Shown here piece after piece: positions 1-47,533 of a stretch of DNA of 47,533 nucleotides. The first letter of the stretch is position 1. Every line of letters begins with the position of its first letter. The DNA lies in IMG/VR virus record IMGVR_UViG_2574179724_000001; one strand, 5' to 3'. The DNA comes from a virus. The position numbers and the translations under genes are program-made. The notes below the pieces were generated by a model. That model made no database searches and was not told where the DNA came from. It saw only the letters and a program-made list of their open reading frames with translations.

Positions 1-95
1 TGACTTAATCTGTTGTCCTGTTGTTGTCCTCGATGCGGCTTTCTACCTATATTATAGGCATCTATAACCCCGATCACCGGTATTTTTATTAATAT
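1..95. repeat. Terminal direct repeat, left copy (attL candidate or circular-assembly overlap)
   Basis: Bases 1-95 are identical base for base to 47439-47533. The repeat runs into both window edges, so its true length is unknown. Confidence 0.9.
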
Positions 96-106
96 TTAGA
101 AGACGT

Positions 107-137
107 AAACGTTGATTTATCAGCGTTTATTTTTTTA
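107..137 (+). terminator. Hairpin plus T-run just outside the integrase 3' end
   Basis: AAACGTTGA (107-115) pairs with TCAGCGTTT (120-128), including one G-T wobble. ATTTTTTTA follows on the + strand. It would block inward antisense transcription into int. Confidence 0.4.
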
Positions 138-4157: not shown

Positions 4158-4784
4158 ATGAAAACAGAAGTTTGGAATGGGCATCAAATAAGATTCATTG
4201 AATTGAACAATGAATGGTTTGCTATCGGCAAAGATGTTACTGACGCTTTGGAATATATCAATAGCAGAGATGCAATCAAAGCACATGTTGATGAAGAAGA
4301 TAAGAATACCGTAGCGATTCACGACGGTATTAAAGGAAATCCAAATAGAGTAGTAATTTCTGAGTTTGGAATTTATGATTTGATTTTTAATTCAAAAATG
4401 CCACAAGCAAAACAATTTAAACGCTGGGTCTTCAACGTAATCAAAACATTGCGTACTCAATCAGGACTAGAGGGCTTTGAGATTTTCCGAACACTTGATA
4501 AGGATCATCAACGAAAAATGATGAATCAACTTAATCAATCATTATCACATCCAGTGCGACTAAATTTTATGAAAGCAAACACGATTACAAATAAAGCAGT
4601 ATCAACTAAGTTTGGCTTTAAGAAAATGATTAAAAAGGGTGAAATGACACCACAGATGCTAGCTGAACGTGAGCATGTTTTAGAGGATGTAGTAAATTTG
4701 ATGGCTTTACGAGATAAGTACGGATTGAATATTTCAATCAGTCAGACAATTTACAACTCGGATAAGCAACTAGTTACGGAATAA
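4158..4784 (+). CDS. Phage antirepressor (BRO-N domain family)
   Basis: N-terminal WNGHQIRF...EWFAIGKDVTDALEY...AIKAHVDEEDK...VISEFGIYDLIFNSKMPQAKQFKRWV matches the Bro-N pattern. AGGAGG RBS. Confidence 0.8.
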   Translation: MKTEVWNGHQIRFIELNNEWFAIGKDVTDALEYINSRDAIKAHVDEEDKNTVAIHDGIKGNPNRVVISEFGIYDLIFNSKMPQAKQFKRWVFNVIKTLRTQSGLEGFEIFRTLDKDHQRKMMNQLNQSLSHPVRLNFMKANTITNKAVSTKFGFKKMIKKGEMTPQMLAEREHVLEDVVNLMALRDKYGLNISISQTIYNSDKQLVTE

Positions 4785-43929: not shown

Positions 43930-45162
43930 TTGAAAAAGAAAGTCTTACTTGGAGTGCTGGCGTTTGCCAGTGCTTTTTGTTTTGTAGTCAGTGTAAGTGC
44001 TGACCGTGATCAAGGCGTGGATTTGTCAAAGTATCAAGGCTCAACGGCTGTATTTGGCCAAGCTAGTGACAAGTTTGCCATCTGCCAGATCGGTGGCTAC
44101 TATGATGGTATATTTTACCCACAATCAACTTATCAATCACAAGTAGCGTCAACGATTGCGCAAGGCAAACGGGCACATACTTACATTTTTAGTGAGTTCA
44201 GTACCCGAGCACAAGCGGATCAGATGCTAGATTACTACTTGCCAAAAGTGCAGACACCTAAAAATTCGATTGTTGCTTTAGATGTAGAATCTGGTACGCC
44301 TAACACTGATGCTGTTATGTATGCCTTAGTTAAAGTCAAGCAAGCTGGATATACTCCAGTTTTATACGGTTATCTTAATTTCTTAAAAGCACATTTAGAT
44401 TTATCTACGATTGCAGACAGTTATCCTCTGTGGTTAGCAGAATATCCAGACTATCAGGTACGCACTACGCCAGACTATAATTATTTTCCGAGCTATAAAA
44501 ATATTCATATGTTTCAGTTTACCAGCACATACAAAGCTGGTGGATTGGACGGAAATGTGGACTTGCTAGGAATTACTAAAAACGGCTATAATGGAACAAC
44601 TACCAATAGTGTGGGAGCCACAACCGTTAAGACTACAACTACCACGGCTGCAATCAAGCAAGGCCAGACAGCTAATGCTACATCTAAAAGTGATATTGCT
44701 GTCGGGTACACGGTTAAGGTTAATTTTTCTGCATCTAAATGGTCAAATGATTCAAATATTCCAAGCTGGGTAAAAGGTAAGAGTTATAAAGCTCAGCAAG
44801 TTTCAGGTAGTAAAGTTTTACTTGCTGGCATTTTAAGCTGGATTGATAAATCTAATGTTGAGATTTTACAAACGGCTAGGCAAGCAACTTCAACCAGCAC
44901 TAGCTCATCTAGTTTGCCAAGTGGAGTACACGCGCAAAGCGGTACTTTCACACCTAACCAGAGTCTGATGGTATGGCATGGTGCAGGGTATAATGCAACA
45001 TATCAATATTACTATCGTGGTGAAAGCATCAAGTACGTTGGGTATATCGACAACTGGAATGCAGGGTACAGATATATCGTGTACAAGGGTGCATCTGGCA
45101 TCTGGTGCTACGTTGCCGACAGACATTTAAGCCCTAATTACATGCTAGGATATGCTAAATAA
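43930..45162 (+). CDS. Endolysin: Sec signal peptide, GH25 muramidase, two SH3b-like wall-binding repeats
   Basis: MKKKVLLGVLAFASAFCFVVSVSA signal-like N-terminus. The GVDLSKYQG start of the GH25 domain. Thr-rich linker. C-terminal SH3-like repeats. TTG start after AAGGGGG. Confidence 0.85.
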   Translation: MKKKVLLGVLAFASAFCFVVSVSADRDQGVDLSKYQGSTAVFGQASDKFAICQIGGYYDGIFYPQSTYQSQVASTIAQGKRAHTYIFSEFSTRAQADQMLDYYLPKVQTPKNSIVALDVESGTPNTDAVMYALVKVKQAGYTPVLYGYLNFLKAHLDLSTIADSYPLWLAEYPDYQVRTTPDYNYFPSYKNIHMFQFTSTYKAGGLDGNVDLLGITKNGYNGTTTNSVGATTVKTTTTTAAIKQGQTANATSKSDIAVGYTVKVNFSASKWSNDSNIPSWVKGKSYKAQQVSGSKVLLAGILSWIDKSNVEILQTARQATSTSTSSSSLPSGVHAQSGTFTPNQSLMVWHGAGYNATYQYYYRGESIKYVGYIDNWNAGYRYIVYKGASGIWCYVADRHLSPNYMLGYAK

Positions 45163-45167
45163 AAATC

Positions 45168-45181
45168 GGGGCTTTTGCCCC
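45168..45181. terminator. GC hairpin after the endolysin gene
   Basis: GGGGC-TTTT-GCCCC. The T-run (GATTTTTATTT) lies on the minus-strand side and an A-run on the plus side. It may act bidirectionally. Confidence 0.45.
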
Positions 45182-45272
45182 ATACATAATAAAATTATTG
45201 TGATATTATATACTTAATGACATATAATAATAGAAATAATAAGCTTTCATTTTTTGAAAATGATGTGTTCTG

Positions 45273-45300
45273 TTGACATTTAAATTATATATTGTATATT
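45273..45300 (+). promoter_or_regulatory. Sigma70-type promoter driving the structured RNA
   Basis: TTGACA (45273-78), 16 nt, TATATT (45295-300). Confidence 0.6.
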
Positions 45301-45306
45301 AAGTAT

Positions 45307-45500
45307 AGGGTTGTGGTAATTCGGAATGTACTCGCGCAAAGGCTATGAGAATAGCTAACCGTCGTAAGCTGCCTGCATGGTAGTCGAGCTTCCGTTGAAC
45401 CCTTAATACATATCTCAAGTCTATCGCGTAATTTATTATGTGATAGACTATTTTTGTATATTAAAAGCCTATCTCTTAATTGAGGTAGGTTTATTTTTTT
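45307..45500 (+). ncRNA. Candidate structured non-coding RNA of about 195 nt (family not recognised)
   Basis: GC-rich block 45308-45402 (49/95 G+C by hand count) in AT-rich ORF-free DNA. Nested helices P1-P3 plus two hairpins (one with a GAGA loop). Ends in tandem terminator hairpins. Confidence 0.5.
45465..45500 (+). terminator. Rho-independent terminator (twin A)
   Basis: AAGCCTATCTC-TTAATT-GAGGTAGGTTT followed by ATTTTTTT. 11-bp stem including G-T wobbles. Confidence 0.8.
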
Positions 45501-45507
45501 GAAATGG

Positions 45508-45535
45508 TTGATTTAAATTATTATATTTGTATAAT
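45508..45535 (+). promoter_or_regulatory. Sigma70-type promoter of the two-gene cargo operon
   Basis: TTGATT (45508-13), 16 nt, TATAAT (45530-35). Confidence 0.6.
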
Positions 45536-45662
45536 GTATGAAAAAGGATTGTTACCTATGGCTTTAATAATTGTCTACATATAGAATTACCGTATTTTTT
45601 TTACTATATATAGTATTTGTAAGATTATATAAAACCAAGATCTTTATGAATCGAGTGATATT

Positions 45663-46106
45663 GTGCATTATTTTAATGAGAAATATTTTCCTTCAAAAAA
45701 GCAACTGTGTTGCCCTCCTGAAGATAGTCATAGTTTTAATGGAACTCTGTATAGATTCACTCAAAGTTCACCCATTTCGACTATGAAAGATTGGGAAGCA
45801 TATGTGACTAATGAAATAAAGAGAAAGCGTTGGGTTGATAGCTGTGATTACAGCACTCTTTGCAAAAGTTCAGGAGTCTCGTGTTATCAGACTGAGGCCG
45901 AAGCTAAAAATGCATTCGAAGCAATGAAAAAACGTTCACCTGCATTCAGAAAAAAATTCAATGGAATTTTTTCCGTGGATATTAGTCCTGTGGATGGAGT
46001 TCTAGCGGAAACATCCAATCCAAAGAATACCTATAGGCACTTTACTTTTTGGATAAACAACAAATCGAAGATTACTACCAATAATTATACCTGCATCAAA
46101 GAATGA
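45663..46106 (+). CDS. Cys-rich protein of unknown function (cargo gene 1)
   Basis: 147-aa ORF. GTG start with a weak GAGTGA RBS (start uncertain). CCPPEDSHSFNGTLYRF, CDYSTLCKSSGVSC and a C-terminal YRHFTFW. AT-rich. Confidence 0.65.
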   Translation: MHYFNEKYFPSKKQLCCPPEDSHSFNGTLYRFTQSSPISTMKDWEAYVTNEIKRKRWVDSCDYSTLCKSSGVSCYQTEAEAKNAFEAMKKRSPAFRKKFNGIFSVDISPVDGVLAETSNPKNTYRHFTFWINNKSKITTNNYTCIKE

Positions 46107-46116
46107 GGAAATAAAA

Positions 46117-47265
46117 ATGAATAAGTTAAGTAACTCTCCAATAAAAAAATTTAAAATTTATCATGTCTATGATTATTATGATGAACCTATACTTTATTCT
46201 TTTTTAAATGAAACAGGAGCATTATTTTTGGCTAACTTTGTAGATTATGATGAAGATAGCACTGAAACATGGTTGTATTTACCAGTATCTTTTCAAGAAC
46301 TTAAAAAAGTTGAATCTGGCGAATGTTCTTTGAGAACACTTATTTTGAGTGGTGAATCTTCTTTTGCTTATATTGAGAAACAAAAAGATGAAATTTCTAA
46401 CTTTTTTATTGAATCTACTAGCAATATAGATTCAAGTTATTTACCTGAAGAAAATGTATATATTGAATATCAGACAGATCAACTTATTGAAAGTAATTCT
46501 ACTGATAATAAAATTACGCCCGATAATAGGTACGCAATTGATATTTCATTCACCTCAGATAAAAATCAGTATGAGATGTCTGCTTCTCTTTTATCTGGAG
46601 TCCTAGTTAACTTACAAAGAATAATGACCGCACTTACTTTGGACAAAAAAGCAAAGCGTATATACAAGATTCATAATGAATTAAATATTGTTGGAACATT
46701 TGCAGGTTCATTTGGAATTAGATTACTATCTGATAAAGTATCTTCACTATTAAATGAAAATGAGTCAGAACCTTATAGAAAGATAGTGAGTCTATTTAAA
46801 ATGACTAACCAAAAGGAAATAGACGTAGAAAAGATAGTTAAGGACTATGGTTGGTTAACGTTAAAACATTTTTTAAGTTTATCTAAAAATCTTTTAGATT
46901 TAAAAGGAGGGAAAATTGAATCAGGTATTCCCCTACCGGGTGCGGGAGTGGAAAGAATTAATACTACTTTTGAATCAAATAAAGTAAATAATTTTATGAG
47001 TTTGTTAAGTAAATCAGCTGTTAAAGTAAGCAGAGAAACGGAGACTTTACAAGGGACTCTCACTAAATATGATTTTGTAAAACATCAATTTTCATTTACA
47101 TCGGATAAAGATAAGGCATTTAATGGTATTGTTAAAACAGAAAAAAGTACCTACACTATACCAGCAGTTGGAAAAGCAGTACTTTCTGTGGAGATAACTG
47201 AGGATAGATTAAATGAAACCACTCAAAAAAAAATAAGCTTAGTATCTTGGACCCCTCAAAAATAG
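46117..47265 (+). CDS. Protein of unknown function (cargo gene 2)
   Basis: 382-aa ORF 10 nt after gene 1. GAGGAAA RBS. N-terminal YDYYDEPILYSF...TWLYLPVSFQELKKVESGECSL domain. The remainder is unassignable. Confidence 0.8.
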   Translation: MNKLSNSPIKKFKIYHVYDYYDEPILYSFLNETGALFLANFVDYDEDSTETWLYLPVSFQELKKVESGECSLRTLILSGESSFAYIEKQKDEISNFFIESTSNIDSSYLPEENVYIEYQTDQLIESNSTDNKITPDNRYAIDISFTSDKNQYEMSASLLSGVLVNLQRIMTALTLDKKAKRIYKIHNELNIVGTFAGSFGIRLLSDKVSSLLNENESEPYRKIVSLFKMTNQKEIDVEKIVKDYGWLTLKHFLSLSKNLLDLKGGKIESGIPLPGAGVERINTTFESNKVNNFMSLLSKSAVKVSRETETLQGTLTKYDFVKHQFSFTSDKDKAFNGIVKTEKSTYTIPAVGKAVLSVEITEDRLNETTQKKISLVSWTPQK

Positions 47266-47314
47266 AATTATGCCCGATATAGTATAAGATGTTTAATCCT
47301 ATTTTGAAACATTA

Positions 47315-47350
47315 AAGCCTCACTCTTAATTGAGTGGGGCTTATTTTTTT
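47315..47350 (+). terminator. Rho-independent terminator (twin B)
   Basis: AAGCCTCACTC-TTAATT-GAGTGGGGCTT followed by ATTTTTTT. Same loop, tail and stem ends as 45465-45500. Confidence 0.8.
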
Positions 47351-47438: not shown

Positions 47439-47533
47439 TGACTTAATCTGTTGTCCTGTTGTTGTCCTCGATGCGGCTTTCTACCTATATTATAGGCATC
47501 TATAACCCCGATCACCGGTATTTTTATTAATAT
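47439..47533. repeat. Terminal direct repeat, right copy (attR candidate or circular-assembly overlap)
   Basis: Identical to 1-95. Ends at the window edge. Confidence 0.9.

Follow-up and report, generated by a model that had tools for sequence, protein, structure and literature searches.

A candidate stand-alone small RNA gene between the lysin gene and a PD-T4-10-like defence operon in a Liquorilactobacillus nagelii prophage

The 500-bp gap that separates the GH25 lysin gene from two cargo genes in a prophage of Liquorilactobacillus nagelii contains a short unit that we tentatively interpret as a stand-alone small RNA (sRNA) gene of about 150 nt, i.e., as an "RNA-only moron" whose product would act in trans; we put the probability of this interpretation at roughly 0.45. 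The unit carries defined transcription signals and insertion boundaries, has no coding potential, is independent of the adjacent defence cassette, and has no relatives in the collections that were searched. Its transcription, the end point of its transcript and any function are what we infer. As it stands, the element is a candidate from a single lineage; its transcription signals are good, but neither structure nor evolution supports it.

Results

The prophage and the position of the unit

The stretch of DNA that was analysed, referred to as the window, is a complete L. nagelii prophage of 47,533 bp, present in CP049304.1 and in AZEV01000043.1. It is bounded by perfect direct repeats of 95 bp (window 1-95 and 47439-47533), carries the integrase at its left end and the lysis cassette at its right, and has an average GC content of 37.6%. 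The repeats are the attL and attR sites of the prophage. Beyond them, after a mismatch of 11 nt, the similarity between the left end of the prophage and the right-hand host flank resumes with a further terminator-like stretch of 30 nt (window 107-136, matching L001 4877-4906); the prophage is integrated upstream of a gene for an ammonium transporter.

Exact look-ups of the lysin and of the first cargo gene (gene A) returned the same prophage and nothing else. This prophage is the one found in all four sources, of which two are L. nagelii assemblies and two are Logan runs. Identity over the unit is 100% in L001, in L006 and in the part of the unit held by the Logan contig L002, which begins within the GC-rich block; L082 was left out of this comparison. 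The GTDB representative of L. nagelii evidently lacks the prophage. The features of the region are collected in Table 1.

Table 1. Features at the right end of the prophage, in window coordinates
Feature	Position	Strand	Remarks
GH25 lysin	43930-45162		
Lysin-proximal hairpin GGGGC-TTTT-GCCCC	45167-45182	.	directly after the lysin stop codon
Insertion relative to "empty-site" relatives	45190-45463	+	about 274 bp; AT-rich lead, promoter, block, terminator 1
Degenerate AT-rich hairpin TCATTTT-TTG-AAAATGA plus promoter	45237-45300	+	homologous to the L003 cassette boundary
Promoter P1, TTGACA-16-TATATT	45273-45300	+	11/12 sigma-70 match; predicted start near 45307/45308
GC-rich non-coding block, candidate RNA core	45308-45402	+	49/95 G+C (51.6%)
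Helix P1	45308-12 with 45398-402	+	stable in the ensemble, as is the GAGA hairpin; only these two
Hairpin GGCTAT-GAGA-ATAGCT	45341-45356	+	pair probabilities 0.90-0.97
Terminator 1	45418-45456 (hairpin 45418-49)	+	14-pair AT-rich stem, then ATTTTTG
Terminator 2	45465-45500 (hairpin 45465-92)	+	conserved late-operon (lysin) terminator of the phage group
Promoter P2, TTGATT-16-TATAAT	45508-45535	+	defence-operon promoter, outside the RNA candidate; L003 has TTGAAT...TATAAT
Defence-operon 5' leader	45536-45662	+	AT-rich, about 125 nt, about 72% identical to L003
PD-T4-10_A-like gene (gene A), putative antitoxin	45663-46106	+	147 aa, GTG start; PADLOC E = 9.8e-12
PD-T4-10_B-like gene (gene B), putative toxin	46117-47265	+	382 aa; PADLOC E = 3.6e-12
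Terminator 3	47314-47350	+	paralogue of terminator 2 closing the defence cassette; 72% identity over 72 nt

A unique near-consensus promoter precedes a GC-rich, non-coding block

The gap contains the only promoter match of at least 11/12 on either strand of the whole window, with TTGACA at 45273-78, a 16-nt spacer and TATATT at 45295-300. Matches of this quality arose in 70 of 3000 dinucleotide shuffles of the intergenic region (2.3%). Promoter P1 is thus the best match in the prophage, nearer to the consensus than promoter P2 of the defence operon, which itself looks functional. Seven nucleotides downstream of promoter P1, the GC content, taken in 90-nt windows, jumps abruptly from about 19% to about 49%. 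The 90-nt windows flanking the block contain 19-23% GC, and the block itself, at 52%, exceeds every 90-nt window of the neighbouring lysin gene, where the peak value is 49%. A preliminary description of this DNA had singled out both the promoter and a 95-nt block with 49 G+C amid AT-rich DNA, and our counts agree with it on both.

That description had also reported no open reading frame (ORF) of at least 60 aa within 45163-45570. This is correct: the largest one, which lies over the block on the minus strand, has 39 aa, starts with TTG, has no ribosome-binding site (RBS) and is not hydrophobic. Over the unit as a whole, neither an ORF of at least 40 aa nor an RBS-preceded small ORF was found, and the few ORFs of at least 20 aa within 45163-45662 all lack an RBS. 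Six-frame translations of the block gave no match at E <= 10 in Pfam, in PHROGs or among 5.8 billion proteins, and the idea of a coding remnant was rejected on these grounds. We also rejected a DGR-type template or other internal repeat of the block, for which the prophage offered no match longer than 14 nt.

The block and terminator 1 lie between two identical copies of an 11-nt direct repeat, TTGTATATTAA (45292-45302 and 45454-45464, with a spacing of 162 bp), which could be a recombination footprint. As a target-site duplication the repeat was rejected, and it was left unused, because by our estimate chance alone would yield about one of its kind in DNA this rich in AT.

Terminators downstream of the block and of the lysin gene

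Terminator 1 starts 16 nt past the block, and a transcript with its 3' end there, as is likely, would be about 148 nt long; terminator 2 would act here as a back-up. Sites composed of a hairpin and a T-run number three within 1.3 kb, against 0.4 +/- 0.6 in shuffles, which bears out the earlier recognition of two terminator-like hairpins, each with its T-run. The lysin-proximal hairpin, also seen in the relatives L007, L011 and L012, has a T-run on the minus strand only, and should therefore be a weak terminator for late transcripts of the plus strand.

Terminator 2 directly follows the lysin stop codon in L093, L097 and L100. It is the ancestral late-operon (lysin) terminator, present in many related phages, and not one half of a regulatory tandem. 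More generally, terminators of one conserved family, AAAGCC-N-TTAATT-N-GGCTTATTTTTT, close the late operon as well as every moron in these phages; the family includes window 45465-45500 and 47314-47350, a degenerate copy at 45241-45264, L003 1531-1570, and sites in L009, L011, L013, L093, L097 and L100. The exchange of cargo cassettes may take place at sites of this family.

The unit is a discrete insertion in a variable slot

From IMG/VR, 69 loci around related lysins were retrieved, six of these lysins being 86-89% identical to that of the window. In L009, L011 and L013, terminator 2, recognisable by AAAGCC..., comes immediately after the lysin hairpin and CATACATAA. These sites are empty, and the unit is therefore an insertion, bracketed by the lysin hairpin on the left and by the conserved late-operon terminator on the right. 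Other relatives hold other contents in the same slot. L007 and L012 fill it with protein morons: by eye, the ORF at L007 4353-4790 resembles the DUF4065 (SocA/Panacea-type antitoxin) family, and L012 4319-5080 comprises a small ORF followed by one that, also by eye, resembles a GNAT acetyltransferase, the two possibly forming a toxin-antitoxin pair. In L014 and L072, the insert is of about 100 nt. The slot between lysin and terminator is a recombination hot spot with many alternative contents.

The closest analogue of the unit is found in L008 (IMGVR_UViG_3300045597_000108), whose lysin is 89% identical. There, positions 4244-4400 hold a different small unit, with a 10/12 promoter that has an extended -10, a GC-rich RNA candidate of about 115 nt (z = -1.9) that includes the C-rich stretch CCCACACCCACCAUUCC, and a terminator of its own preceding the shared terminator 2. 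The hairpin of that terminator, TAGCCTACTG-ACGAG-CAGGCTA with a T-run, was read from the sequence and is not among the sites listed by the terminator scan. The L008 unit has no match in Rfam. On thermodynamic grounds, it is a better sRNA candidate than the block in the window. The two inserts have only their junctions in common (CATACATA-TAAAAT... and ...TATTTTTGTATATTAAAAGCC); homology between their cores was rejected, as the alignment score equals the shuffle mean.

The left boundary of the unit (45237-45294) aligns with the terminator-plus-promoter segment of the defence cassette in L003 with a local score of 39, compared with 25.1 +/- 3.6 for shuffles, of which 2 in 500 reach this value. 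With this left boundary homologous to that of the PD-T4-10 cassette, and with a paralogue of terminator 2 closing the defence cassette, the right end of the prophage can be read as a tandem of morons, P1-block-T1-T2 followed by P2-A-B-T3, that share one kind of junction.

The neighbouring defence operon has its own promoter and leader

The two cargo genes are adjacent and match the A and B profiles of PD-T4-10, respectively. The match of gene A covers nearly the full length of its profile. In the protein of gene B, the N-terminal Pfam domain DUF6575 is recognised with E = 4e-17, and the PD-T4-10_B and DUF6575 matches cover only the N-terminal 120-140 residues or so, the PD-T4-10_B profile having 353 positions. 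The C-terminal residues, about 240, have no family match; presumably they are the toxic effector part, which may be a different effector. In E. coli, PD-T4-10 is a toxin-antitoxin pair of the abortive-infection type, toxin B being neutralised by protein A (PMC9519451).

A homologous cassette, with 52% amino-acid identity, directly follows a LysM-type lysin in the Logan contigs L003/L004, after a gap of 241 nt. In L003 this gap includes a terminator, a promoter and a leader, which match window 45465-45662 at about 72% identity; it contains nothing that resembles the block. A third cassette, in L005, also lacks the block. The position that the preliminary description gave the RNA candidate, immediately upstream of the cargo operon, is thus right on the map, but the conserved promoter P2 lies between the two. 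Since promoter P2 and the leader are conserved downstream of both terminators, the two roles that it had considered for the RNA, a ligand- or protein-sensing leader and an antitoxin-like partner of the downstream proteins, are both disfavoured. The former is further weakened by the ancestral character of terminator 2, and both by the homologous cassettes without a block; as to the latter, no RNA antitoxin is needed, because protein A of PD-T4-10 is the antitoxin of toxin B.

Two observations concern the operon itself. The leader is conserved at about 72% (window 45536-45662 versus L003 1616-1742) although the proteins are only 52% identical, and its conserved parts include a ATATATAG motif and the TTTATGAATCGAGTGATA-GTG start region; it could be a regulatory 5' UTR or contain a short upstream ORF, whose ATG at 45645 is in a different frame from gene A. 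In addition, NCBI annotates gene A from an internal ATG (P0001, 107 aa), as opposed to 147 aa from GTG 45663. The deposited annotation is probably truncated, because the L003 homologue shares this GTG start and the alignment to the PADLOC profile already begins at residue 14.

Neither RNA families nor relatives of the block were found

Searches of the whole window against Rfam 15 at gathering thresholds gave no match. At E <= 10, in 45100-45750, the only matches were driven by the terminators, with 17-23 bits against thresholds of 48-50, and none of the CRISPR-DR or tracrRNA models, which bear on the idea of an RNA anti-CRISPR or solitary CRISPR repeat, matched in this interval. The preliminary description, which had recognised no RNA family and had suggested this search, is borne out in that respect. 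The neighbouring phages gave nothing in Rfam either, and ARAGORN found no tRNA or tmRNA gene in the window.

By blastn, the intergenic region and the unit returned chance fragments only from INPHARED (50,697 phage records) and PLSDB (72,556 plasmids). The block is absent from the 69 lysin-related IMG/VR loci and from the three loci with homologues of the cassette, as judged by blastn, nhmmer and a covariance model; a covariance model built from the block alone found only itself. IMG/VR was also probed with the exact k-mers 45308-26, 45339-61 and 45384-402, with a fourth exact k-mer, and with one structure-aware R/Y pattern. Further exact probes were 45368-87 in JGI metagenomes, and 45328-47 and 45361-80 in the GTDB species representatives. 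All of these probes gave either zero matches or chance 20-22-mers within unrelated coding sequences. Because k-mer probes catch near-identical copies only, absence from metagenomes and genomes is weak evidence; more weight can be given to the fact that the block is missing from the related loci and from the collections of phages and plasmids. It had been proposed that homologous intergenic regions be compared for covariation of the helices, but no homologue was found across the collections searched, and hence neither conservation nor covariation supports a function.

The predicted fold of the block is at the level of shuffled sequences

The minimum free energy (MFE) of the block is -25.1 kcal/mol, compared with -24.7 +/- 3.5 for dinucleotide shuffles (z = -0.11 to -0.12); z reaches -2.7 solely when the terminator hairpin is added. 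A folding energy at shuffle level is atypical for a stable structured RNA. The structure drawn in the preliminary description, a set of nested helices P1 to P3 around a three-way junction, scores -18.6. Every base pair listed there is canonical or G-U, and in the ensemble helix P1 (about 0.9) and the GAGA hairpin (about 0.95) are robust; helices P2 and P3, however, are weak, with probabilities of about 0.5 and 0.25. The junction fares worse: its second arm, ACCGT/ATGGT, has a probability of 0.01, its place in the ensemble being taken by a GCUGCC/GGUAGU hairpin, and the junction as a whole is supported neither thermodynamically nor by comparison. The MFE fold contains no pairs between the block and terminator 1, each of which folds on its own.

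An RNA from the opposite strand was set aside as less probable, since minus-strand promoters reach only 9/12 and both downstream terminators are plus-oriented; the minus-strand fold of the block is slightly better than that of the plus strand (z = -1.6 to -1.7), and the T-run of the lysin-proximal hairpin is on that strand. An antisense target inside the prophage was rejected, as the best duplex energy between the block and the rest of the prophage is no better than that of shuffled blocks. C-rich loop motifs are typical of base-pairing sRNAs of Firmicutes; none could be read in the block.

Discussion

The stand-alone structured RNA of the preliminary description survives in part: a unit running from promoter to terminator is plausible and provides the best reading of the region, whereas the fold is no better than that of shuffled sequences. 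In favour of an sRNA gene, we count the unique promoter, the jump in GC content, the terminators, the lack of an ORF, the discrete insertion and the analogous unit of L008, so that a promoter and an intrinsic terminator of its own enclose a short non-coding segment. Against it, we count the shuffle-level fold, the lack of an Rfam family and of any homologue, and the restriction to a single prophage lineage.

If the unit is such a gene, the host sigma-A RNA polymerase would start at about 45307 from promoter P1, the strongest consensus promoter in the prophage. Moron promoters are usually active in lysogens, and promoter P1 probably is active there as well. Transcription would cross the 95-nt core and stop at terminator 1 (about 45456), giving an RNA of about 148 nt, and polymerases that read through would be stopped by the ancestral terminator 2 (about 45500), giving one of about 192 nt. 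During lytic growth, the unit would probably also form the 3' end of the late, or lysis, transcript, because the lysin-proximal hairpin has no U-tract on the plus strand. Through base pairing or protein binding, the RNA would affect in trans a target of the host or of a competing phage that is encoded outside the prophage, and would not be a cis-regulator of the PD-T4-10-like operon.

Several other explanations have to be weighed against this one. The main rival, rather unlikely yet a serious possibility, is that the unit is a non-functional remnant, i.e., the husk of a former moron that kept its boundary promoter and terminator while its payload was deleted or replaced by a GC-richer foreign scrap, with a transcript devoid of function. 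In its favour, the element is an orphan and not conserved, its fold is no better than that of shuffles, its left boundary repeats that of a cassette in degenerate form, and it sits in a recombination hot spot with many alternative contents; moreover, one 20-mer of the block recurs by chance in coding sequences of unrelated bacteria, so that a coding-like composition of the block is possible. Against this explanation speak a promoter that is nearer to the consensus than promoter P2 and the best in the prophage, the lack of protein similarity in any frame, a GC content above both the prophage average and the lysin-gene windows, and the analogous non-coding unit in the same slot of the sister phage L008. 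Considerably less probable is an element of the late-transcript 3' UTR, in which the block and terminator 1 would mainly stabilise the holin-lysin mRNA or serve as its processing site, or else give rise to an sRNA derived from the 3' UTR; the promoter match would then be secondary. As the T-run of the lysin-proximal hairpin is on the minus strand only, late transcription should indeed reach both terminators downstream of the block, of which the second serves the lysin gene in relatives. However, relatives with lysins that are 86-89% identical manage without the unit, which has, in addition, a near-consensus promoter of its own.

The two explanations that would tie the RNA to the defence operon are, in our view, both highly improbable. 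According to one, the block is a cis-acting leader or riboswitch that senses a ligand or protein, with the tandem terminators gating read-through into the operon. The block does lie upstream of the operon on the same strand, with two terminators in between; but it is separated from the operon 5' UTR by promoter P2 and its conserved leader, it does not accompany the operon in L003/L004 or L005, the second terminator is inherited from the lysin gene, the MFE fold (the only fold considered here) shows no pairing of block and terminator 1, and no riboswitch or leader family of Rfam is matched. According to the other, the RNA is a partner of the defence system, namely a trans-acting antitoxin or regulator that pairs with the operon leader. 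Positions 45315-30 of the block can form 14 of 16 pairs, one of them G-U, with 45576-91 of the leader, including eight contiguous Watson-Crick pairs. Complementarity of this kind is, however, expected by chance (about 0.7 eight-mers, by our estimate), and this duplex is not among the best ones. Furthermore, PD-T4-10 has a protein antitoxin (PMC9519451), the homologous cassettes lack the RNA candidate, tandem repeats like those of the type III antitoxin ToxI are absent (0 arrays in TRF at a minimum score of 30), and no small hydrophobic ORF that could be the toxin of a type I system overlaps the block.

These distinctions also define how the candidate relates to known systems. Like tandem-terminator riboswitches and attenuator leaders, it combines a GC-rich, foldable segment with two terminators and a downstream operon on the same strand; unlike them, it is followed by a conserved promoter between terminators and operon, its second terminator comes from the lysin gene, it belongs to no aptamer family and gives no sign of an antiterminator in the MFE fold, and homologous operons do without it. 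It resembles RNA antitoxins, both of the type III, ToxI-like kind and of the type I antisense kind, in adjoining an abortive-infection system of the toxin-antitoxin type, and differs from them in having neither tandem repeats nor an overlapping small hydrophobic toxin ORF, and in that the adjacent system has an antitoxin that is a protein.

The likeness is greater to small RNAs that prophages carry as morons, such as SprD of the Staphylococcus aureus phage phiSa3 and DicF of an E. coli prophage. AgvB and AsxR are further small RNAs of E. coli prophages (PMC4104026). As in those cases, the candidate is a promoter-to-terminator unit without an ORF, variably present in the accessory end of a temperate phage and next to conversion or defence cargo; unlike SprD, DicF and AgvB/AsxR, with which it shares neither sequence nor structure, it has no Rfam family and no evident seed motif. 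The classical moron, which codes for a protein, consists of a promoter, an ORF and a terminator (PMC3594210). The candidate has this architecture and location, and shares homologous boundaries with the PD-T4-10-like moron next to it; its payload differs, being a GC-rich, non-coding segment of 95 nt. It would belong to a known class, that of phage-encoded sRNAs carried as morons, and not to a new one. A bolder proposal, which we consider improbable, is that the lysin-terminator slot of Liquorilactobacillus phages is a hot spot for exchangeable RNA-only morons, of which the block and the L008 unit would be two alleles, strongly expressed and serving the lysogen, with the block as the founder of a new class of structured RNA. 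If this were true, the small RNAs in the slot could, for example, be decoys or be directed against phages or against defence systems.

The more solid outcome of this analysis is a negative one, namely that the PD-T4-10-like cassette is autonomous, with a conserved promoter and leader of its own, and independent of the RNA candidate. Should the candidate prove to be transcribed and functional, it would add to the very small number of such RNAs described for the phages of lactic acid bacteria, and it would mean that the cargo slot behind the lysis genes can hold RNA-only payloads side by side with protein defence systems.
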